DNA of 63,245 nt, filler included, from Candidatus Zapsychrus exili (GCA_030765585.1; 8 parts of 8 records of this genome joined end to end with filler, not necessarily neighbours in it); one strand, 5' to 3'; shown: positions 6,828 to 58,323, counted from the first letter of the whole stretch. The notes: generated by a model not told the origin, from the letters alone. Program-made: numbers and translations.

Positions 6828-8210
6828 TTAGTGAAATATAGGGAAAAACAAAATTGCTAAATAAGCAATGACCATAGAAATGATACCGATAGTAGCTCCT
6901 ATCTTAAGCCAATAGCGGAATGTTACTTTGATATTTCTTTCTTTTTCCAACAACCCCAAAGCAACTATGTTGGCGGTCGAACCAATCATACTGATATTTC
7001 CTCCGTAACAAGCACCAAAAAGAAGTGCCCACCATAAAGGTTTTAGATTGATATGAAGCTCCGTCATGCTTTGAATAATAGGAACATAAGATGCAACGGT
7101 AACTACATTGTCCAGTCCACTTGATAAAAATCCACTTGAAAATAAAACCACGCCAGGTAAAACCTTAGGAGATGTCCCTACGACATCAATCAACTTAACG
7201 GCTAAGAAATCAGCTATACCTGATGCGCGAATTACACCAGCTTGAGCAAAAAGGAACATAAAAAATAATAGCGACGGCCATTCTACCTCATGCTCTATAT
7301 AATGTCTTGCCTTATCGTGTCTATATAGCATTACAATACCTGCAGAAATTACAGGTATCATTATCAAAAGAGTATTTTGTTCAAGACTTAAAAGCGACTC
7401 TATTCTTTTGTGAGCTGCCATAAGACAAATGGTGCCACCAAATATCAACAAACTTATTTTTGTTCTAAAATCTGGCGGAACAGAAATTAAATAGAGAAAG
7501 CTTTTGTCTTCCTGAAAAGGCTTTAATTTTTCGTTTAATTCTGAAATATATTTGCGATACCAAAAACATAAAATAAAAATAGCTACAAGCAACACCACCA
7601 TAGATAGAGGAAATGCATGTGTAATAAAATCTTCAAAAGAAAGCTTACTTCTTGCTGCTATTAATACTCCAACAGGATTTCCTAAAACTGTTGAAGCAGA
7701 TCCTATGTTGGTTGCAATAACAGAAGAAATGACAAACGGTAGAGGTTCTATTTCAAGAAAGTCACAAATATTTAAAATGACCATTGTCATAATTATGATA
7801 GAAGTCACCTCATCCATTAAACCAGAAAATAGAGCTGAACTTACCATAATTATAACAAACATCTTTTTTCCTGTTAAATTCTTTACTCTTAAAACAAGGG
7901 TTATAAGCCAAGTAAAGAAACCTGCTTCCTTCATCATACCAACAATAATCATCATTGAAACCAGAAAAAGAATAACATCTAAAGACGCATAGGTTATAAA
8001 AGACTCCATATCAACTGCGCCTAGCAAAAAGAACAAACCACTTCCAATAAAAACAAAACTAAGTCTAAAATCCCAGAAAAACAATGTTCCAGTAATAGAC
8101 ATAGAAAATATTCCTATAATCAAAGCTTGTTTTGGAGTAAATCCAATAGAAAATCCAAGAAAGCCAACACAAAGAGCAATACAGAATAAGAATATAAGTT
8201 TTAATTTCAT
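6828..8210 (-). CDS. ArsB/NhaD (CitMHS/SLC13-like) ion transporter
   Basis: TNIGSASTVLGNP and GGNISMIGSTANIV motifs; about 12 TM helices. Confidence 0.85.
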   Translation of the reverse strand: MKLKLIFLFCIALCVGFLGFSIGFTPKQALIIGIFSMSITGTLFFWDFRLSFVFIGSGLFFLLGAVDMESFITYASLDVILFLVSMMIIVGMMKEAGFFTWLITLVLRVKNLTGKKMFVIIMVSSALFSGLMDEVTSIIIMTMVILNICDFLEIEPLPFVISSVIATNIGSASTVLGNPVGVLIAARSKLSFEDFITHAFPLSMVVLLVAIFILCFWYRKYISELNEKLKPFQEDKSFLYLISVPPDFRTKISLLIFGGTICLMAAHKRIESLLSLEQNTLLIMIPVISAGIVMLYRHDKARHYIEHEVEWPSLLFFMFLFAQAGVIRASGIADFLAVKLIDVVGTSPKVLPGVVLFSSGFLSSGLDNVVTVASYVPIIQSMTELHINLKPLWWALLFGACYGGNISMIGSTANIVALGLLEKERNIKVTFRYWLKIGATIGIISMVIAYLAILFFPIFH

Positions 8211-46241: not shown

Positions 46242-46243
46242 AA

Positions 46244-47026
46244 ATGGATATGATTGATTTAGAAAACACTAAGTTTACTTTTTATGGTGATTTACTTGGA
46301 ACAGCAAAACTTTACAATATAAATGAACAATTGGCCAAGAGAAAATTGGACAATTTTTATGATATAGTTTTTAATAAATTTAAGACAATCGAAAGTGAAG
46401 AAGGAATTAAGGGATGGCTTTTTAGCGATTCTTTTTTTGTAACAGGGACAAAATTACGTAAAGCAATAGAAATTATAGGTGCAATATATTATAGTCTTTT
46501 TCATGAAGATATCTATTTAAGAGGAGCAATTGTCGGAGGGGAACTAGAGTTTGACCCTAAAATAGAATTAAGTAATTTAACAAAACAGCTCCCCAAAACC
46601 GATGTTTTATTTAGAGCTGTTACCTTGGAAAAGAGTGTAAAGGGGATTAGATTTGTAATAGAAAAGAATTTAGCAATAAGGATGCTTCCTAAAGAATGGC
46701 TGACAGATGACTTATACAAAAACAATGTAACGCTGGAAGGGTATGGAAAATATGATTTCAGAAGAAAAATTGTTTTATCTTCCGAATGGCACGCCTATGA
46801 GTACCTTTGGTCTTTCCATTTGAACCCTTCAGAGCTTTTTAGTGATGGAGTGGCGAAGTTTATACGTAGACTAAATATAAGTCCCTACGAGGTAATAGAA
46901 GAAAAGTTGTTACAAGTACCAAAGGATGTAAGGATTCATTTGGAAGAAACTAAAGGATTACTTAAAAGATCTTCGCTTAGATTTGTTATTACCGACAACG
47001 CTTTAAACTTATTCAACAGACAATAA
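46244..47026 (+). CDS. Class III nucleotidyl cyclase-like protein
   Basis: YGDLLGT (first Asp), FSDSF (second Asp), LRGAIVGG, VLFRAVTLEK, RFVI. Confidence 0.65.
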   Translation: MDMIDLENTKFTFYGDLLGTAKLYNINEQLAKRKLDNFYDIVFNKFKTIESEEGIKGWLFSDSFFVTGTKLRKAIEIIGAIYYSLFHEDIYLRGAIVGGELEFDPKIELSNLTKQLPKTDVLFRAVTLEKSVKGIRFVIEKNLAIRMLPKEWLTDDLYKNNVTLEGYGKYDFRRKIVLSSEWHAYEYLWSFHLNPSELFSDGVAKFIRRLNISPYEVIEEKLLQVPKDVRIHLEETKGLLKRSSLRFVITDNALNLFNRQ

Positions 47027-47063
47027 GTTATAATAGATATTATTATTAATTATAAGCTTAACG

Positions 47064-47086
47064 AACTCGTCCTTAAAGGCGAGCCA
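47064..47086 (+). repeat. att-like cassette boundary site 1
   Basis: AACTCGTCCTTAAAGGCGAGCCA followed by AACCCTCT..AGAGGG hairpin (47097-47130). Confidence 0.85.
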
Positions 47087-47170
47087 ATATGCGGGAAACC
47101 CTCTCGTCAAATTTTTTTGATGCAGAGGGCTTTTTACTTGTGATATAATATTTTTTAGGAGGGAAAGATA

Positions 47171-47491
47171 ATGAATATAGGAGTTGTCATTTCAAATAAT
47201 GATGTTGAAACCTGCTGGAACGCTCTTCGATATGCTAATTTTTGCTTATCCCAGAAAGATGAAGTTAAAGTTTTCTTTATGGGTAAAGGAGTAGAATACC
47301 AAAAGGTTAGCACGGAGAAGTTTAATACAGTTGAACAAGCAGAGAAACTGATGCAGGCTGGAGGCAAAATACATGCCTGTGGTAGTTGTATTAAATCAAG
47401 AGACCAAGATGGTTCTGAAATGTGCCCTATTTCTACAATGAAAGATATGTATGATATAGTGAAAGAAAGCGATAAGGTTGTTACCTTTTAA
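47171..47491 (+). CDS. DsrE-family protein
   Basis: WNALRYAN, VKVFFMGKGVE, ACGSCIKSR, CPISTM, SDKVVTF. Confidence 0.88.
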   Translation: MNIGVVISNNDVETCWNALRYANFCLSQKDEVKVFFMGKGVEYQKVSTEKFNTVEQAEKLMQAGGKIHACGSCIKSRDQDGSEMCPISTMKDMYDIVKESDKVVTF

Positions 47492-47547
47492 GGCTCAGTT
47501 GCAACAAGCCGCTTTTGTCCGTGAGCCGTTCTTTTAATTCTAAAGGT

Positions 47548-47595
47548 AAACTCATCCCTGAATGTAGCTTGATGAGTGAACGTATCGGGGAGCCA
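47548..47595 (+). repeat. att-like cassette boundary site 2 (24 nt longer)
   Basis: AAACTCATCC-N29-GGGGAGCCA followed by AAACCCCTTGTAACT..AGTTGCAAGGGGTTT hairpin (47602-47636). Confidence 0.7.
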
Positions 47596-47684
47596 TCGTC
47601 GAAACCCCTTGTAACTAAATAAGTTGCAAGGGGTTTTTGTTTGAGATATAATAAAAAATAAAGTTGGAAAGAGGGGGATAAGTT

Positions 47685-47957
47685 ATGAATTGGAAAATAT
47701 TTCTAGCAACATTTACGGCAGTATTCTTTGCAGAACTTGCAGATAAAACTCAATTCGTAGGGCTTGGAATGTCCGCCAAGTCAGGAAAACCATTAACGGT
47801 CTGGGTTGGTTCTATTTCAGCTTATATCATTGTTACTGCTGTTACAGTTCTAATCGGGGCAACTTTAGGGAAGTATATTAAGCCAGAATTGATAAAATAT
47901 TGTGGAGCATCATTATTTATAATAATGGGTATATTGATGTTTTTAGGAAAAGTTTAA
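47685..47957 (+). CDS. TMEM165/GDT1 (UPF0016) half-size cation transporter
   Basis: VFFAELADKTQF (E-phi-G/A-DKTQ motif), three TMs. Confidence 0.9.
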   Translation: MNWKIFLATFTAVFFAELADKTQFVGLGMSAKSGKPLTVWVGSISAYIIVTAVTVLIGATLGKYIKPELIKYCGASLFIIMGILMFLGKV

Positions 47958-48024
47958 CTAATCCCCAGCTCTTTATATATAATAATATTATATATTGTTA
48001 TTAATATTAATTATAAGCTCGACA

Positions 48025-48047
48025 AATTCGTCCTTAAAGGCGAGCCA
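48025..48047 (+). repeat. att-like cassette boundary site 3
   Basis: AATTCGTCCTTAAAGGCGAGCCA; upstream TATTAATTATAAGCT shared with site 1. Confidence 0.85.
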
Positions 48048-48121
48048 ATATTTGTAACTCGTTGTAATTTAATAAGTTACAACATAAAGAGTCTATCTAT
48101 TTTAGGTAGACTCTTTTTTTG

Positions 48122-48171
48122 TTGACCAAAAACTGGAGACGTGTTATATTATTATGCACATATGTGCATAA
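48122..48171 (+). promoter_or_regulatory. sigma70 promoter with palindromic operator
   Basis: TTGACC-17 bp-TATATT, then TTATGCAC-ATAT-GTGCATAA. Confidence 0.65.
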
Positions 48172-48186
48172 CTAAGGAATTGTTAG

Positions 48187-48480
48187 ATGAGACCCAAGAA
48201 AACACGATGGATTAAATGTAAGCCAGACGAAAGATGTTTCAGACCTAAATGCAAGCCTGTAAAGCAGCTTGAAGGCGTAACTGTATCTCTTGATGAATTT
48301 GAAGCTATCAGGCTGGCTGATTTAGAAGGACTTACGCAGGAACAGATTGCTAAAATGATGAAAGTGCATCGCTCTACTGTTGCAAGGATGCTTCAATCTG
48401 CACATCTAAAAGTTGCTGATGCATTGGTAAATATTAAGGCAATTAAAATTGAAGGTGGTTGTTGTAAGTCAGAGGAGTAA
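48187..48480 (+). CDS. DUF134 HTH DNA-binding protein
   Basis: MRPKKTR, DEFEAIRLADLEGLTQEQ, VHRSTVAR, IKIEGG. Confidence 0.9.
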   Translation: MRPKKTRWIKCKPDERCFRPKCKPVKQLEGVTVSLDEFEAIRLADLEGLTQEQIAKMMKVHRSTVARMLQSAHLKVADALVNIKAIKIEGGCCKSEE

Positions 48481-48486
48481 TTTATC

Positions 48487-49659
48487 ATGAAAAAACATCT
48501 CAAGTCATTTTTTATAATAGCTGGTTTTATTTTGTGTTACTTCCTGCCGCTAAAGCAAATAAACTTGTCTGGTCCGTTATTTGAATCTTTGGCGTTAGTC
48601 AAGTGGTATGCGAGAGAGCATGTCCTTTTATGCCTTGTTCCTGCGTTCTTTATCGCAGGAGCAATATCAATCTTTGTTAGCCAAGCATCTGTTGTTAAAT
48701 ACTTTGGTGCGAAAGCTAATAAGTTTTTAGCTTATAGTGTCGCTTCAATTTCTGGGACAATTCTTGCAGTATGCTCTTGCACAGTTTTGCCACTTTTTTC
48801 GGGTATATACAAAAGAGGGGCGGGAATAGGTCCTGCCACAGCATTTCTTTATTCAGGTCCTGCAATAAATGTTTTAGCAATAATAATGACAGCTCGTGTT
48901 CTTGGTTGGGAATTAGGAGTAGCAAGAGGAGTTGGAGCAATTGTTTTTAGCGTTATTATAGGTTTTTTAATGCATTTAATCTTTATCAAAGAAGAAAGGA
49001 ACAAGGATTCTGCCGCCGATTTAATTGTTGAAGAAGTTAAAGAAAACAGGTCTTTACTTCAAAATGGTTTATATTTCGCATCAATGGTAGCTTTTCTTGT
49101 TTTTGCAAATTGGGCTAAACCTCAAAGTGGAGAAATGGGTCTATGGAGTCTTATATTCAGCATGAAATGGTATCTATCAGGATTCTTGCTACTTAGTCTA
49201 AGTGCTATGCTGATGAAGTGGTTCAAAAAGGATGAGCTGAAGGGTTGGGTATCGGCTTCTATAGGGTTTGCTCACCAAATGCTACCCTTACTTCTAATCG
49301 GAGTCATAGTCGCTGGTGTTTTGTTAGGTCGCCCAGGAGAAGAAGGATTAATACCTTCATGGGTAATTGCAAAGTCTGTAGGCGGTAATTCTTTGTTGTC
49401 TAATTTCTTTGCTTCAATAGTCGGTGCTTTCATGTATTTTGCTACGCTTACAGAAGTCCCAATTTTACAGGGTCTCATAGGTTCTGGTATGGGAAAAGGT
49501 CCAGCATTGGCACTTTTATTAGCAGGACCAGCACTAAGTTTGCCCAACATGCTAGTTATTAGAGGTGTCCTGGGAACTCAAAAGACAGTAGTATATGTCA
49601 GCTTGGTAGTCATCATGGCTACTATAAGCGGTATTATTTTTGGAGTTATGGTTGGTTAA
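48487..49659 (+). CDS. ArsP/DUF318-family permease
   Basis: HVLLCLVPAFFIAGAI, AVCSCTVLPLF, FLYSGPAIN, YFATLTEVPI, LLAGPALSLP. Confidence 0.9.
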   Translation: MKKHLKSFFIIAGFILCYFLPLKQINLSGPLFESLALVKWYAREHVLLCLVPAFFIAGAISIFVSQASVVKYFGAKANKFLAYSVASISGTILAVCSCTVLPLFSGIYKRGAGIGPATAFLYSGPAINVLAIIMTARVLGWELGVARGVGAIVFSVIIGFLMHLIFIKEERNKDSAADLIVEEVKENRSLLQNGLYFASMVAFLVFANWAKPQSGEMGLWSLIFSMKWYLSGFLLLSLSAMLMKWFKKDELKGWVSASIGFAHQMLPLLLIGVIVAGVLLGRPGEEGLIPSWVIAKSVGGNSLLSNFFASIVGAFMYFATLTEVPILQGLIGSGMGKGPALALLLAGPALSLPNMLVIRGVLGTQKTVVYVSLVVIMATISGIIFGVMVG

Positions 49660-49674
49660 TGTTGGAGGTAAGGG

Positions 49675-49905
49675 ATGAAAATTGAGATTCTTGGAACGGG
49701 ATGTCCGAAATGTAAGCAATTGTATGAAAACACCAAATCAGCGGTTGAGCAAGCTGGCGTAGAAGCAGAAATAGTAAAGGTGGAGGATATATCTAAAATA
49801 ACGGATTATGCTGTTATGATGACCCCTGCTGTAGTTGTTGATGGTGTGGTTAAATCATCTGGTAAAGTATTATCGCCAGAAGAAATTAAAGCGTTTTTAC
49901 AATAA
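49675..49905 (+). CDS. Small redox-active disulfide protein (MTH895/ArsE-like thioredoxin)
   Basis: ILGTGCPKC, VMMTPAVVVDG. Confidence 0.92.
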   Translation: MKIEILGTGCPKCKQLYENTKSAVEQAGVEAEIVKVEDISKITDYAVMMTPAVVVDGVVKSSGKVLSPEEIKAFLQ

Positions 49906-49913
49906 AAATAGGA

Positions 49914-50336
49914 GTGTTAATTATGAAAGCGAAACTGACAGTTATAGCATTATACTTAGTTACATTGCTAAGTAGCCCTGCTACCTTTGCAGCGGAAGGC
50001 TCCAGCGTTGTTGCTACTTACTTTCATACAACATTTCGTTGTGTTTCTTGTCATAAAATTCAAAACTTCACTGAAGAAGCCTTGCGAAAAGGGTTCGCAA
50101 GGGAACTTGCCTCTGGAAGATTGAAGTATCGGGTTATAAATATAGAAGAACCAGGAAATGAGCATTATGTCCAAGATTATAGTTTATACACTAAATCAGT
50201 GGTTCTTTCTCTGCAAAAAGATGGTAAAGAAGTTGGGTTCAAGAACCTTGATAAAGTCTGGCAGCTTTTGAACGATAAGGATAAGTTTGTTTCGTATATT
50301 GAGAATGAAACAAAATCATTTTTAGATTCTAACTAA
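49914..50336 (+). CDS. ArsF-like exported thioredoxin-fold protein
   Basis: Signal peptide, YFHTTFRCVSC, N..EPGNEHY, KNLDKVW. Confidence 0.78.
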   Translation: MLIMKAKLTVIALYLVTLLSSPATFAAEGSSVVATYFHTTFRCVSCHKIQNFTEEALRKGFARELASGRLKYRVINIEEPGNEHYVQDYSLYTKSVVLSLQKDGKEVGFKNLDKVWQLLNDKDKFVSYIENETKSFLDSN

Positions 50337-50348
50337 CAGGAGTCTGTT

Positions 50349-51029
50349 ATGCTTGCATTAGTTTCGGCACTTTGGTTGGGGATATTAACATCTATCAGTC
50401 CATGTCCACTTGCATCAAATATAGCAGCTATTTCATTCCTTTCTAAAAAGATAAATCACCCTAAAGATGTAATGATGTCAGGGATTGCCTATACACTGGG
50501 CAGGGTCTTGACATATACAGTAATTGGTATTCTTATTATAACTTCTCTGGCAGGAGTGCCAGTCATAGCCAAGTTCCTTCAAAAATATATGAATATAATA
50601 CTTGGACCGCTACTTATAGTTGTAGGGTTGTTTCTCTTAGAGGTTTTTAAGTTTAGTTTTTCAGGACTTTCTTTATCACATGAGAAGCAGACTAAATTGG
50701 CCGATTCTGGTTTAAAAGGCGCTTTTGTTTTAGGTGTCGTTTTTGCTTTGTCATTCTGCCCAATTTCAGCTGGTCTTTTTTTTGGTAGTCTTATACCTTT
50801 GGCACTAAATAATAATTTTGGTGTTATTTTTCCAGTCATGTTTGGCATCGGAACAGGGTTACCCGTAATTTTATTTGCCCTGGCAGTAGCTTTTGGGTTT
50901 TTTGCTATATCACATCTATTTAAAAGACTGACAGAGATAGAAAAATATACAAGGAAAATTACAGGCGGTATTTTTGTTATAGTTGGAGCATATTTTATTT
51001 GGAACTATATTATTGTTCCCTTGCTATAA
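50349..51029 (+). CDS. ArsG-like / CcdA-DsbD-type membrane protein
   Basis: LGILTSISPCPLASNIAAI, YTLGR, ALSFCPISAGLFFG, GIGTGLP. Confidence 0.85.
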   Translation: MLALVSALWLGILTSISPCPLASNIAAISFLSKKINHPKDVMMSGIAYTLGRVLTYTVIGILIITSLAGVPVIAKFLQKYMNIILGPLLIVVGLFLLEVFKFSFSGLSLSHEKQTKLADSGLKGAFVLGVVFALSFCPISAGLFFGSLIPLALNNNFGVIFPVMFGIGTGLPVILFALAVAFGFFAISHLFKRLTEIEKYTRKITGGIFVIVGAYFIWNYIIVPLL

Positions 51030-51139
51030 TAGTAGAGTTCGGGATGAAATTAGAGATCTTGTAAACGATATGCCAGATAACTTGGTTAAGCAAGAATCAA
51101 CGACTCACTGAAGATTTGTTGAGTATTTTCCTCATTTAA

Positions 51140-51172
51140 CCAGTTGCGAAACTCATCCAATGCGGGGAGCCA
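51140..51172 (+). repeat. att-like cassette boundary site 4
   Basis: CCAGTTGCGAAACTCATCCAATGCGGGGAGCCA followed by AACCCTCTGT..GCAGAGGGTT hairpin (51183-51215). Confidence 0.85.
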
Positions 51173-51267
51173 TTGACTTCTTAACCCTCTGTGATAAAAT
51201 ATATTGCAGAGGGTTTTCGATTTCATTGTTACCGTTTTGAAATGGAAGTTGTATAGTTAAAAAACAA

Positions 51268-51744
51268 ATGAGCGTAATAGAAAAAGCTTTAGAACTTCTG
51301 AAATCAAGAGAATTTGTTGCAGTGGCTACGGCTGATAAAGGAGGAAAACCCAATTCTGCTCCTAAATTATTATTAAAAATAGATGGCGGAATAGTTTATT
51401 TTATCGATTACGGTATAGGTAGAACCGCTGACAATCTGAAAGTTAATCCAGAATTTTCTTTGTCATTTATTGATGTCAATTCTCTTTTTGGGTATAGGTT
51501 AAATGGCAAAGTGGAAATCATTGAAAAAGGCAAGATTTATGACGAGGGCCTAAAAAAGTTAAGGGGAAAAGAAACAAAGCTTACTGTAGAGCGTATTGTT
51601 GAAGGAGTGCACGTTGGTAAAGCACATAAAGACTTTGAACTGGGATTTTCTAATCGCTTGCTAATATATAAGGTTAAGATTGAAGAAGGTTGTGAGATAA
51701 GTCCTCGCGGTGTAATAAAACGGAAAAGCAGATTACGGATATAA
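51268..51744 (+). CDS. Pyridoxamine 5'-phosphate oxidase-like FMN-binding protein
   Basis: VATADKGGKPNSAPK, RTADNLKVNP, GYRLNG. Confidence 0.85.
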   Translation: MSVIEKALELLKSREFVAVATADKGGKPNSAPKLLLKIDGGIVYFIDYGIGRTADNLKVNPEFSLSFIDVNSLFGYRLNGKVEIIEKGKIYDEGLKKLRGKETKLTVERIVEGVHVGKAHKDFELGFSNRLLIYKVKIEEGCEISPRGVIKRKSRLRI

Positions 51745-51806
51745 CAAGACCTTTAGGTGATCATGGTAAGTTCTTGGTATTGTTTTTCGGTTTCTCCCAA
51801 ACACAG

Positions 51807-51839
51807 CCAGTTGCGAAACTCATCCTTAAAGGCGAGCCA
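51807..51839 (+). repeat. att-like cassette boundary site 5
   Basis: CCAGTTGCGAAACTCATCCTTAAAGGCGAGCCA followed by TAACTTATT..AATAAGTTA hairpin. Confidence 0.87.
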
Positions 51840-52009
51840 CTATTTCATAACTTATTTAATTACAATAAGTTATATGAAAGATTCTGTCTGTAATAAATCC
51901 CGAGCAAATTTTGCTTGGGATTTATTGTTTTAGGAAGCACAATACATTGGTTACAGTTCTCCGATTGGATTGAGAAACGGTCTGTAATGCTATATTGTAA
52001 AGGGGAAAA

Positions 52010-53152
52010 ATGAATAATAGTTCTTGGTTCTCTCAGATTTCATTTAAGCAACGGATTTGGTTGTTTGCGACTGTGGCAGGAATGCTTGCGATTGCAACTC
52101 TTGGGATTTTGCTGGGTTCATCAAGTAAGCCAAAGGAATCAATTGATTTCAACGTTAGTATGTCTATCCAAGACATTGCTCCCAAGCTTAGAGTTACAGG
52201 TAAAGGTCTTACTCGCGAACTTGAATTACCGATTGATATTTCCCAAAAAAAGCCTCTCAATTTATTAAAGGTAACGGACAAAGAGCTTCATCATGCCGCT
52301 GAACACATTCTTTCTCATCGTGATAGTATACTTAAATATTATATTTATGCGGCATTGGTATTATTTGGCCTCGTTTTTCTCACTAAACTAGGACGACCGG
52401 ATGGGTCCAACGTCAAACGCAGGCATAGCTGGTATCCTCGAGCACCCTATGTTGTTTCCCTTTTACTTTCTGTAATAGTAGCTGGATTTCTTCTTGGCAA
52501 GTCGCCCAATCCTATGGAGGGGACAGTCAAAGTATTTAAATCAATGGTAGGGCTTTACCCTGACCCAATGGTCAAAGCAATTGCTTTCAGTTTTTTCATT
52601 ACACTTGCTGTTATTGGAAATAAGATAATTTGTGGCTGGGCTTGTCCTTTTGGCGCTTTGCAAGAACTTATTTACAGCATTCCAATTTTGCAAAAAATCA
52701 AAAAAAAGAAACTTCTATTTATATTTACAAACACAATTCGCGTGTGTCTTTTTATTGCCATGCTTCTTTTTCTGTTCGGAATCATTGGGGGGCGCGAGGG
52801 ATTTGTAATTTACCACTATGCTAATCCCTTTAACTTATTTAATCTTGATTTCGAAACATTCAGTATTCTGTTGACAGTAATCATTGCCTTGTTGTTATCG
52901 TTCAGTATATACCGCCCATTTTGTCAGTTCATTTGTCCTTTTGGTCTTATTTCTTGGTTAGCTGAACGAGTCAGCATTTTTCGTGTTCAAATTGACAAAA
53001 AGAAATGCACCCAATGCGGTGCCTGCATAAGGGCATGTCCTTTGGAGTCTGCAGAAGGTCGGGTCGAAGGTAAGAGATTCCCGGCTGACTGCTTCAGTTG
53101 TGCGCGTTGCTTAAATGTTTGTCCAACTGATGCTATCAAGTATGGTAGGTGA
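52010..53152 (+). CDS. Membrane 4Fe-4S binding protein (NapH/NosR-like polyferredoxin)
   Basis: CGWACPFG, CQFICPFG, CTQCGACIRACP, CFSCARCLNVCP; TMs. Confidence 0.9.
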   Translation: MNNSSWFSQISFKQRIWLFATVAGMLAIATLGILLGSSSKPKESIDFNVSMSIQDIAPKLRVTGKGLTRELELPIDISQKKPLNLLKVTDKELHHAAEHILSHRDSILKYYIYAALVLFGLVFLTKLGRPDGSNVKRRHSWYPRAPYVVSLLLSVIVAGFLLGKSPNPMEGTVKVFKSMVGLYPDPMVKAIAFSFFITLAVIGNKIICGWACPFGALQELIYSIPILQKIKKKKLLFIFTNTIRVCLFIAMLLFLFGIIGGREGFVIYHYANPFNLFNLDFETFSILLTVIIALLLSFSIYRPFCQFICPFGLISWLAERVSIFRVQIDKKKCTQCGACIRACPLESAEGRVEGKRFPADCFSCARCLNVCPTDAIKYGR

Positions 53153-53247
53153 TAGAGAACTTGTAGCACCAGTTTAAATAAATGTGAGTTCTTTATATAA
53201 TTTATTAGCTTTTTCGGTAAGGTAATAACTCTTAAACTCTTCTAAAA

Positions 53248-53279
53248 AGTTGCGAAACTCGTAGTCTTGGGGCGAGCTA
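53248..53279 (+). repeat. att-like cassette boundary site 6 (degenerate)
   Basis: AGTTGCGAAACTCGTAGTCTTGGGGCGAGCTA followed by AACCTTATGTGAG..TTGCAGAGGGTT, like site 4. Confidence 0.78.
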
Positions 53280-53360
53280 CTAAAACATAACCTTATGTGA
53301 GTAAAATACTTGCAGAGGGTTTTGTTTTGTAGTAAATTATACATGGAAGGATAAATATAT

Positions 53361-53405
53361 ATGGTAAAAGAATTTGCTACTGCTATAAATTGCATAGATG
53401 GACGT
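53361..53405 (+). CDS. N-terminus of putative beta-carbonic-anhydrase-like protein (truncated)
   Basis: MVKEFATAINCIDGR (CxDxR motif); only 15 codons visible. Confidence 0.55.
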
Positions 53406-53505
53406 NNNNNNNNNNNNNNNNNNNNNNNNNNNNNNNNNNNNNNNNNNNNTTAATTAATTAANNNNNNNNNNNNNNNNNNNNNNNNNNNNNNNNNNNNNNN
53501 NNNNN
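53406..53505. other. Artificial contig linker
   Basis: N44-TTAATTAATTAA-N44. Confidence 0.99.
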
Positions 53506-57765: not shown

Positions 57766-58323
57766 GATTTTCTGATCTTTAATATTTTTATGTTCTCCGC
57801 CTTTTAATACTTGACCTGTTTCAACTATCATTCTTTCATAGCCATACGGCGCTTTTCCACCCATCCAGTAGCCTTTACCGGCATGAAATTTCATTCCCCG
57901 TATGGTATTTTGTCTTATTTTCTTAAGATATTCCGAGGCCTCAGAACTTTTTATAAGCTTCATCAATGATGTACCTATATCATCACTCTTAAAACCCTCA
58001 TTTACAAAGATTGGCTCTTTATGATATCTTTTTACTTCGTGTATCCAATAGAATGTCTCTGTTGGATCCTGAAACCTGCCCCACCTTGATATATCAGGTA
58101 CTAACACATATTGAAATGGTTCGTTAGATGTCCGGCAATAATCAATCATCTCCTGAAATATCGGCCTTCCCTCAACGTTTTCACCACAAGCCTCTTCTTC
58201 AAAAAAGCGGATAACTTCTATCTCATTAGCATCAGCAAATACAAGGATATCCTTTTTCTGCTGTTCAAGAGATGTTTCCTGCATATCTGTAGATTTTCTT
58301 AAGTATGCAATTGCTCGTTTCAT
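57766..58323 (-). mobile_element. Large serine recombinase, N-terminal part (3' truncated)
   Basis: AIAYLRKST (catalytic Ser), RPIFQEM, DISRWGR, GYWMGGKAPYGY start of recombinase domain. Confidence 0.92.

Follow-up and report, generated by a model that had tools for sequence, protein, structure and literature searches.

An array of small gene units bordered by tRNA-Asn-like sites in Candidatus Zapsychrus exili, and its possible origin by accretion at an integration hotspot

Integrons are ordered arrays of co-oriented cassettes that lack a recombinase gene, each cassette bringing one recombination site and all of them sharing a single docking site. Cis-mobilisable elements are flanked by att sites and also lack a recombinase, are thought to be moved by the recombinase of a neighbouring or resident element, and usually measure tens of kilobases (kb). 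The enzymes of staphylococcal cassette chromosome (SCC) elements are large serine recombinases, and their target is the end of a protein-coding gene. Here we describe an array of small gene units, bordered by six related sites that resemble the 3' end of tRNA-Asn, in the metagenome-assembled genome (MAG) of Candidatus Zapsychrus exili (GCA_030765585.1; G000 below), which comprises 2,044,061 bases in 129 contigs at 34% G+C. The stretch analysed, called the window, consists of contigs of this MAG strung together with N spacers over 63,245 nucleotides (nt), and the array occupies one entire contig of it (C66; 7164 bases, window 46242-53405).

To judge from the cited sections of the literature, the nearest described system is the ssrA islands of Dehalococcoides (McMurdie et al. 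2011, PMC3146451). These islands follow one another directly behind the single-copy small-RNA gene ssrA, with 20-bp direct repeats of its 3' end as their borders. Their integration module comprises a serine recombinase of about 540 amino acids (aa), whose gene adjoins attL, is read from the reverse strand and contains the repeat, together with a ParB-domain gene; 15 ssrA islands without an integration module were proposed to be cis-mobilisable, and the same paper names cis-mobilisable elements and accretion as well as SCC composite islands with Ccr serine recombinases (PMC3146451). In the tycheposons, as set out in the sections cited, successive insertions at one tRNA displace older elements into an island in which partial tRNAs and remnants mark the older events and the cargo is niche-adaptive; these elements carry an integrase by definition and often replication genes, and 910 of 937 use tyrosine recombinases, a minority using large serine recombinases (10.1101/2020.12.28.424599). 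The additive flexible genomic islands of Alteromonas occupy tRNA/tmRNA hotspots and vary from strain to strain in the number and order of their cassettes, and the cited part of that account describes no common recombinase, non-tRNA arm or regular micro-cassette layout (PMC4898812). A literature search found no paper joining Omnitrophota with a serine recombinase, and among papers on serine recombinases and tRNA-Asn, judged by title and abstract, none concerned such arrays.

The six sites that the original prediction had placed on C66 were all recovered by a regular expression for their two parts (A[CT]TC[AG]T..GG[CG]GAGC[CT]A), and five of them by R1, a sequence model of arm plus core that was used to search relatives for sites. 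Scanned across the whole genome, this two-part pattern has six copies, all on C66 and all on the plus strand, and each falls at the boundary between two plus-strand genes; all 10 complete open reading frames (ORFs) of the contig lie on that strand. The motif GGSGAGCCA occurs six times in the window where 0.16 copies are expected, a number reached in none of 100 shuffles; five of these copies belong to sites 1-5, and the sixth (22420) stands without a left half.

Alignment of the six sites with those of relatives resolves a three-part structure, consisting of a non-tRNA arm (CCAGTTGCRAAACTCRT), a duplicate of the final 16-18 nt of tRNA-Asn (CCNNNNGGSGAGCCA) and a terminator hairpin. The arm, with the consensus (TTAA)CCAGTTGCRAAACTCRT, is conserved over 17-21 nt and is not tRNA-like. 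The copy is present in all six sites over 9-18 nt, and this core corresponds to the 3' strands of the T-stem and acceptor stem, followed by the discriminator G and the CCA of tRNA-Asn. The site consensus reads (TTAA)CCAGTTGCRAAACTCGT, CCAC(GC/TT)GGGGGAG(CCA), 5-15 nt and a hairpin with a U-run. Two departures noted originally hold good, as the longer spacer of site 2 proves to be a 29-nt insert and the core of site 6 is degenerate (GGGGCGAGCTA); site 5 is a mosaic that joins the arm of site 4 to the core of sites 1 and 3. Between the sites, each unit of 0.45-3.1 kb runs from a tRNA-like end and terminator through a promoter-like region and 1-5 cargo genes to the next arm. The enclosed same-strand genes are unrelated to one another, as had been described, and Pfam backs the gene list; the first ORF, which had been called cyclase-like, is indeed present on the plus strand but matches no Pfam family. 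No recombinase domain was found in the eight C66 ORFs that match Pfam families, the other two of the 10 matching none.

A tRNA-Asn with a matching end had been predicted to exist, and the genome does hold one. This tRNA-Asn(GUU) lies on another contig (G000:C70, about 7461-7745) and ends in GGGGGAGCCA; dnaX and recR stand upstream, and its 3' end GGTTCGAGTCCACGCGGGGGAGCCA falls 147 nt short of the contig end, followed by a terminator and a promoter-like stretch, with no recombinase gene in those 147 nt. The gene was identified by eye, because a group I intron in its anticodon loop (7483-7697; Rfam RF00028, 80.8 bits) caused ARAGORN to miss it; ARAGORN likewise called no tRNA in the window. The junction 'GTGTAACCA', present in several relatives, suggests that intron-bearing tRNA-Asn genes occur there too.

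The likeness of the sites to this tRNA extends through the core and into the terminator. Positions 17-36 of R1 match genuine tRNA-Asn 3' ends in all six loci searched without filters, and a site on contig C61 of the relative G026 is identical to the G000 tRNA-Asn over the last 15 nt. The terminator type 'AAGCCGTTGTGAGTTAA..' stands behind the tRNA-Asn of G022 and also behind sites in G026 and G013, while 'AGCCCTTCGGCTATAAAGCTGA..' stands behind the tRNA-Asn of G021 and behind a site in G018; the hairpins after the six C66 sites and after real tRNA-Asn have z scores of -3.9 to -7.7 against shuffles. A pattern for the tRNA 3' end matched at 31 places in 30 of the 45 related genomes that form the family set, and at five of these the match is to tRNA-Gln(CTG), whose end is almost the same; ARAGORN was used to check three of the five. 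At one metagenome locus an arm site lies 610 nt downstream of tRNA-Gln(CTG) and has a Gln-like core, CCAAATGAGGCAACCA (L145:7320-8040), and Gln-like cores also occur at L144:8001 and L282:2020. As far as these sequences go, the core follows the target tRNA. Elsewhere, 180 nt past the tRNA-Asn on C16 of G064, there is a second partial repeat of the tRNA-Asn end (GAGTCCTCGCGGGGGAG; L045:685-706) with a different left flank, which may be the scar of another type of element.

Sites of this kind recur among relatives and in metagenomes. R1 matches at E <= 1 in 28 of the 45 family genomes, and the array-rich ones are G026 (18 hits, for example 4 in 3.2 kb), G025 (5), G018 (4), G013 (4), G063 (3) and G068 (3); G000 itself holds further R1 sites on C11 and a weak one on C79. 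The genes between relatives' sites, 1-5 per unit, are nearly all co-oriented with the sites, and their content varies from genome to genome, with a cargo of detoxification, redox, transport, toxin-antitoxin and sugar-modifying genes. The exact 19-nt arm was found at 52 metagenome loci, 43 of which have, by eye, a G-run core behind the arm; five identical metagenome hits (L258, L265, L267, L277 and L292) are unrelated coding sequence. Among the matches listed, named genome records with arm and core are mostly Candidatus Omnitrophota, with a few other labels. The matches listed from a scan of genome contigs with an 18-nt degenerate arm were mostly chance hits in unrelated taxa (an estimated 277 or so expected), a search with the wrong spacing gave mostly noise, and a regular expression for the arm with three substitutions was too loose to help.

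Linkage to tRNA-Asn holds at most of these loci. Where a locus holds both, the sites lie downstream of tRNA-Asn on the same strand, at 0.6-8.3 kb, in 10 of 11 cases (G018:C73, G064:C16, G004:C25, G009:C40, G013:C11, L263, L289, L290, L302 and L305), so that the expectation of same-site arrays with different gene content, placed downstream of and co-oriented with tRNA-Asn, is borne out in relatives and metagenomes. The gene recR lies just upstream of tRNA-Asn in L289, L290, L302, L305 and G013:C11, as it does on G000:C70. A first regular expression, which looked for GGSGAGCCA repeats up to 20 kb downstream of tRNA-Asn at 20 loci, found none; the arm-based R1 later found sites. No recombinase domain was found in the ORFs covered around the sites, namely 66 of 127 in family genomes and 38 at metagenome loci; two transposase fragments occur among those 66, both in G025 loci.

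The lineage does possess a large serine recombinase at the 3' end of tRNA-Asn, as had been anticipated. The enzyme, of 531-573 aa, adjoins tRNA-Asn on the opposite strand at nine loci, as eight intact genes that overlap the tRNA (G011, G014, G017, G025, G026, G063, G061 and L135) and one N-terminally truncated remnant (G018). Read in reverse complement, the tRNA-Asn 3' half supplies its final 13-16 codons (..WLPRE/VDSNLGPSG..), and all four of these recombinases that were checked by Pfam contain the Resolvase, Recombinase and Zn_ribbon_recom domains. Such genes stand next to the tRNA, by coordinates only, in G033, G021 and G008, and one lies near tRNA-Gln in G006. On C73 of G018, an island of 3.7 kb extends from the tRNA through the recombinase remnant, a Gp49/helix-turn-helix (HTH) pair, a small HTH ORF and a cargo gene to an arm site, and an island on C40 of G009 resembles it. 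In viral contigs there are four recombinase ORFs with the WLP tail, two of which abut tRNA-Asn or tRNA-Gln, while for the other two (L370 and L371, with identical tails) no tRNA is shown; a related recombinase abuts tRNA-Gln(CTG) in viral contig L374. A free, unintegrated site was sought in 80 viral-contig loci and none was seen.

The sequence at the left of the arm has a coding-like appearance, which might fit an origin from the tail of the recombinase gene. On the reverse strand, the two triplets left of GTTGC encode W/F/Y in 78 of 89 distinct arm sites and Leu in 71 of 89, and the Leu triplets use all six Leu codons; inside the arm, 17 synonymous and 51 non-synonymous changes were counted, much as in control frames (18/44 and 9/42), with no surplus of synonymous changes. 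One candidate origin, that the arm is the sequence following the tRNA end in recombinase-bearing elements, was rejected, the three hits in the 401 genomes of the phylum set that keep GGGAGCCA being chance matches in coding DNA.

At 11 loci an arm site is preceded, at a distance of 0.7-2.3 kb, by a small HTH_ParB ORF that is read from the other strand and lies within a module of about 520 nt that is 78-83% identical between genera (for example G000:C11:10970-11296, L096:9918-10229, L095:4224-4514 and L101:677-1000). Its product may be a regulator or a directionality factor of an autonomous element. Contig C11 of G000 also carries, at 445-2646 on the minus strand, paralogues of the DsbD_2 and 140-aa proteins of unit 3, beside a 359-aa membrane protein. 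These paralogues end at a site that has an arm and no core (C11:400-420), and the island therefore appears to span several contigs.

Comparison of units between genomes and samples indicates that they are modular. A dual-specificity-phosphatase unit is common to C71 of G001 and C61 of G026, at 80% identity over 857 nt, and the shared block runs from site core to site core with differing flanks; on the same contig of G026, an operon of ArsR, ArsP_1, CDF, methyltransferase and Thioredoxin_3 genes that is related to unit 3 is also preceded by a site. A DNA search with C66 across the 45 family genomes found only DsrE and pieces of the ArsP operon, in other places, and the same order in none. None of the three outcomes named at the outset as refuting the original prediction was encountered, in that no relative shows the same gene order, the motif is not scattered through the genome, and both the tRNA and the recombinase exist.

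Public sequencing runs add joints between units that are not neighbours on C66. No run holds more than 20% (0.20) of the C66 words; Logan contigs of four runs from four studies (X1-X4) were aligned to C66 at >= 90% likeness, and stretches of C66 uncovered by run contigs carry no information. In X1 and X2, at depths of 14.4 and 14.7, position 51175 is joined to 47601 (3575 nt back, with three other letters between), linking site 4 to the terminator after site 2; this abundant relative has other sequence after site 3 and before site 4, and keeps the junction pieces while skipping the GDT1 ORF. X3 contains a joint from 51214 to 52000 (skipping 785 nt, with 23 other letters between), which omits the PNPOx unit, and another from 53329 to 51138, as well as a 3292-nt contig that spans the operon at 48151-51032 with 106 differences and an unlike left flank. 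In X3 and X4, tRNA-like ends (..GAGTCC..GGGGAGC..) stand directly before the terminator of the GDT1 unit. These joints at site borders fit circles or other unit orders and are suggestive of them.

We observe how the sites are built and that they resemble the tRNA; in relatives we observe that they are linked to tRNA-Asn and that a recombinase adjoins this gene; and the units have varied neighbours. On these grounds we lean, if modestly, towards the view that C66 preserves part of an array grown by accretion, in which non-autonomous cargo units gathered at tRNA-Asn as a hotspot of integration, a landing pad probably run by a large serine recombinase. We infer the identity of the enzyme, its crossover point, the present-day mobility of single units and the movement of recombinase-less units in trans. 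In the proposed course of events, the arm-plus-core site of an incoming circle would recombine with the tRNA-Asn 3' end in a conservative, site-specific reaction, and the unit would insert beside the tRNA, renewing the tRNA end and terminator and pushing older units outward. Units would stack because the right half of the incoming site resembles the tRNA end, so that the product on the tRNA side is again a target. The likely enzyme would be the large serine recombinase of the lineage, whose gene abuts and reads into tRNA-Asn, and the C66 units, having no recombinase, would have been moved by it in trans in the manner of cis-mobilisable elements.

Several observations weigh against this accretion view. 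One concerns linkage, as L135 is the exception among the 11 loci, with its sole site across tRNA-Asn in the opposite orientation. In G000 there is no assembly link between C66 and C70, which stops 147 nt past the tRNA, and the recombinase is present as fragments only, at three contig ends (C38, C13 and C110), so that 'integrase-free', the earlier term for the array, is true of contig C66 and not of the genome. In the C13 recombinase the tail ..NWLPDKRL.. overlies a tRNA-like AGGGAGCCA that has another left arm, and no tRNA or consensus arm was found beside it. Elements with an intact recombinase showed no far-end arm site in G014 (19 kb), G025 (7 kb) or L135 (whole genome), and the recombinase stands next to tRNA-Asn in only 4 of the 10 family genomes with strong sites (E <= 1e-3). 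On C66, decay has affected two arms (sites 1 and 3) and one core (site 6); the unit promoters are consensus matches only, and the count of promoter-like sites (25 versus 23.0 +/- 5.2 in shuffles) shows no excess. The joints rest on 34-62 nt on their shorter side at >= 90% likeness, and other organisms or assembly errors are possible sources; the related MAGs are themselves fragmented. Finally, the crossover at (A/G)TCC that had been proposed was not confirmed. The exchange point falls to one side of the core in site 5 and to the other in the 51175>47601 joint, which is at odds with a single fixed 2-bp crossover.

Two side observations belong to these loci. At L135:6100-8100 the site precedes head-to-head tRNA-like pieces, CCTCGCGGGGGGAGGCCA and then GCGAGGACTCGAA; the scrambled pieces, with an intact recombinase alongside, may be the scar of an inversion. 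In G000, C13:3-565 and C38:3-398 are two ends of a large serine recombinase gene, both at contig starts.

A stronger form of the same idea, which we hold tentatively and would put at somewhat less than an even chance, is a dedicated gene-capture platform built on a large serine recombinase, in which micro-cassettes are captured, stacked, excised and re-ordered in trans, making it a counterpart of the integron of independent origin. Here the tRNA-Asn 3' end would be the docking site and the overlapping recombinase the integrase, and the micro-cassettes would be 0.5-3 kb long and equipped individually with a terminator, a promoter and an arm-plus-core site of about 40 bp. The platform as a whole would be spread through the Omnitrophota.

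The alternative that survives best, though we consider it unlikely, is that the units are fixed relics, that is, the distal cargo ends of recombinase-bearing elements whose recombinase modules were deleted, with the sites left as scars. This possibility agrees with the accretion view that the units arrived by site-specific integration, and departs from it only over whether they still move. The decayed arms and core noted above suit it, as do the arm-only sites without a core (G000:C11:400, G018:C64:3514 and in G009) and the recombinase remnants at tRNA-Asn with an arm site at the far end on G018:C73 and G009:C40; remnants and partial tRNAs are also described for tycheposon islands in the cited sections (10.1101/2020.12.28.424599). 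However, no recombinase pseudogene pieces were found inside any of the 0.45-3.1 kb units of C66, and simple deletion is insufficient because each site is trailed by a tRNA-type terminator and not by the 3' coding end of a recombinase, as in the recombinase-bearing elements. The arm is moreover conserved across many genera and metagenomes while its flanks are unrelated, and the same units have other neighbours in other samples.

It is improbable, in our estimation, that a junction module of about 100 nt (arm, core and terminator) spreads between genes by itself, like a miniature inverted-repeat transposable element or a repetitive extragenic palindrome, the genes between being no cassettes. At least eight G026 sites share a near-identical 65 nt after the core while their genes differ, single sites in G063 adjoin the core-like genes TypA and KdpD, and the X1/X2 relative retains junction pieces without the GDT1 ORF, all of which such a module would explain. 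It would not explain why sites lie downstream of and co-oriented with tRNA-Asn in 10 of 11 loci, or why, on the right, they consist of the 3' end and terminator that belong to the tRNA; terminal inverted repeats and target duplications are absent, transposases amount to the two fragments among 66 ORFs, and in G000 the motif is confined to very few contigs.

We give equally little credence to the idea that the sites are real but used by a tyrosine integrase or some other enzyme. G000 has 10 Phage_integrase matches, several beside tRNA genes, the distal site of the intact-recombinase elements was not found, and a 2-bp crossover accounts less well for the varying exchange points than would strand exchange across an overlap, or homologous exchange. 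Nevertheless, no tyrosine integrase lies next to tRNA-Asn or at any examined site, and C66 has no Phage_integrase match (an IntI-specific model was not searched), while the large serine recombinase is the sole recombinase that recurs at tRNA-Asn, where it physically overlaps the gene. A role of the motif as RNA, be it a leader or riboswitch with a terminator platform or a tRNA-like element of the 3' untranslated region, is very improbable, since the sense orientation of the sites, 10-15 nt before a terminator, and the weak inverted symmetry CTCGTCC/GGCGAG are outweighed by the lack of any Rfam family below E 0.27 or overlapping a site (46243-53406), by the lack of covariation (0.095 versus 0.093 in shuffles, 204 of 500 shuffles being as high) with a candidate hairpin whose centre pair is unpaired in 36 of 39 sequences, by downstream genes that are functionally unrelated, and by links to tRNA-Asn and the recombinase that it leaves unexplained.

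Set beside the described systems, the array resembles known islands more than a wholly new machine. As in the ssrA islands, all six sites of C66 repeat the 3' end of the target gene, a reverse-strand recombinase overlaps the target in relatives, though not on C66, and a small HTH_ParB ORF recurs before sites in the way a ParB gene belongs to the ssrA module. The tandem placement of those islands behind their target RNA gene, in its orientation, is seen in 10 of 11 related loci, while in G000 itself the assembly does not join C66 to the tRNA-Asn contig. It differs in its target, which is tRNA-Asn and in some relatives tRNA-Gln(CTG), in its host lineage, in units of 0.45-3.1 kb with 1-5 genes against the many-kb islands of the cited account, in the conserved non-tRNA arm of 17-21 nt that ends every unit, and in that no second small recombinase such as the DsiA of that account was seen beside the large one. 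Compared with tycheposons, the units are much smaller, and neither an integrase, by which those elements are defined, nor replication genes were found in the eight of 10 C66 ORFs matched by Pfam or in 104 ORFs of related units. Within the described systems as cited here, target, host lineage, small regular units and a non-tRNA arm on every unit set this array apart.

The array shares with integrons its small, co-oriented, recombinase-less units with one site each; it has no Phage_integrase (IntI-type) match and no attC hairpin, its docking site is a tRNA gene, and where integron cassettes rely on Pc, each of its units carries a terminator and a promoter-like region of its own. Read-through from one common promoter is unlikely because a strong terminator opens each unit. 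The description as an integron without IntI or attC stays an analogy, the ssrA islands being closer. With cis-mobilisable elements the C66 units appear to share att-like flanks and the lack of a recombinase, whereas those elements and SCC elements are usually tens of kb in size and derived from integrative and conjugative elements or SCC, and the SCC target is not a tRNA.

The features of C66 are listed in Table 1. The gene cut by the right contig end has a homologue in G009 that belongs to Pro_CA_2 (PF20393), and a search for its remainder in G000 found only a paralogue on C59.

Table 1. Features of contig C66 in window coordinates (bits, score of model R1; z, hairpin score against shuffles)
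Feature	Position	Strand	Evidence
Last gene (260 aa, unmatched in Pfam) of a unit that continues beyond the left contig end	46244..47026	+	
Site 1: variant arm AAGCTTAACGAACTCGT and core CCTTAAAGGCGAGCCA	47054..47089	+	R1, 28.5 bits
Terminator-like hairpin and U-run after site 1	47099..47135	+	z -3.85
Unit 1 cargo: DsrE/DsrF-like protein, 106 aa	47171..47491	+	Pfam DsrE
Site 2: arm remnant AAACTCATCC, 29-nt insert, core GGGGAGCCA	47548..47595	+	Regular expression; missed by R1
Terminator hairpin after site 2	47601..47637	+	z -6.77
Unit 2 cargo: GDT1-family protein, 90 aa	47685..47957	+	Pfam
Site 3: variant arm AAGCTCGACAAATTCGT and core CCTTAAAGGCGAGCCA	48015..48050	+	R1, 28.9 bits
Two hairpins after site 3, U-run behind the second	48053..48116	+	z -5.92
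Unit 3 operon: DUF134, ArsP_1 permease, Thioredoxin_3, 140-aa ORF (no Pfam family), DsbD_2	48187..51029	+	Pfam
Site 4: consensus arm CCAGTTGCGAAACTCAT and core CCAATGCGGGGAGCCA	51140..51174	+	R1, 32.5 bits
Terminator hairpin after site 4	51183..51215	+	z -5.96
Unit 4 cargo: PNPOx_N protein, 158 aa	51268..51744	+	Pfam
Site 5: arm of the site 4 type and core of sites 1/3	51807..51841	+	R1, 34.6 bits
Two hairpins after site 5, U-run behind the second	51843..51930	+	z -6.86
Unit 5 cargo: membrane protein with 4Fe-4S domains, 380 aa	52010..53152	+	Pfam
Site 6: consensus arm, degenerate core GTAGTCTTGGGGCGAGCTA	53246..53281	+	R1, 27.3 bits
Terminator hairpin after site 6	53281..53329	+	z -4.60
First 14 codons of a putative carbonic-anhydrase-like gene truncated at the contig end	53363..53405	+	

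Two further observations concern other parts of the genome. A small serine recombinase, a 188-aa open frame with a Resolvase domain, lies on the minus strand at window 57868-58314 (G000:C78:103-549), and no link between it and the array was seen. Three copies of tRNA-Ser(GCT) occur on contigs with tyrosine integrase genes (C36:3027-3793, C117:34-1223 and C127:5788-12077), tRNA and integrase standing within about 600 nt of each other on C36 and C117; these contigs look like a second tRNA-linked island system with another type of enzyme.

Few routes of gene exchange are recognised in the Omnitrophota and other uncultured lineages with small genomes. A tRNA-Asn pad that collects units of 1-5 detoxification, redox, transport and toxin-antitoxin genes would explain part of their flexible genome, and the natural systems of site-specific integration would gain tRNA-targeting large serine recombinases whose sites are short and defined. 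The conserved arm offers a simple marker for the discovery of such arrays in metagenomes; it also accounts for the breaks of the assemblies at these places. If the recombinase-less units do move on their own, integrons would have an independent counterpart that solves the same problem in a second way.

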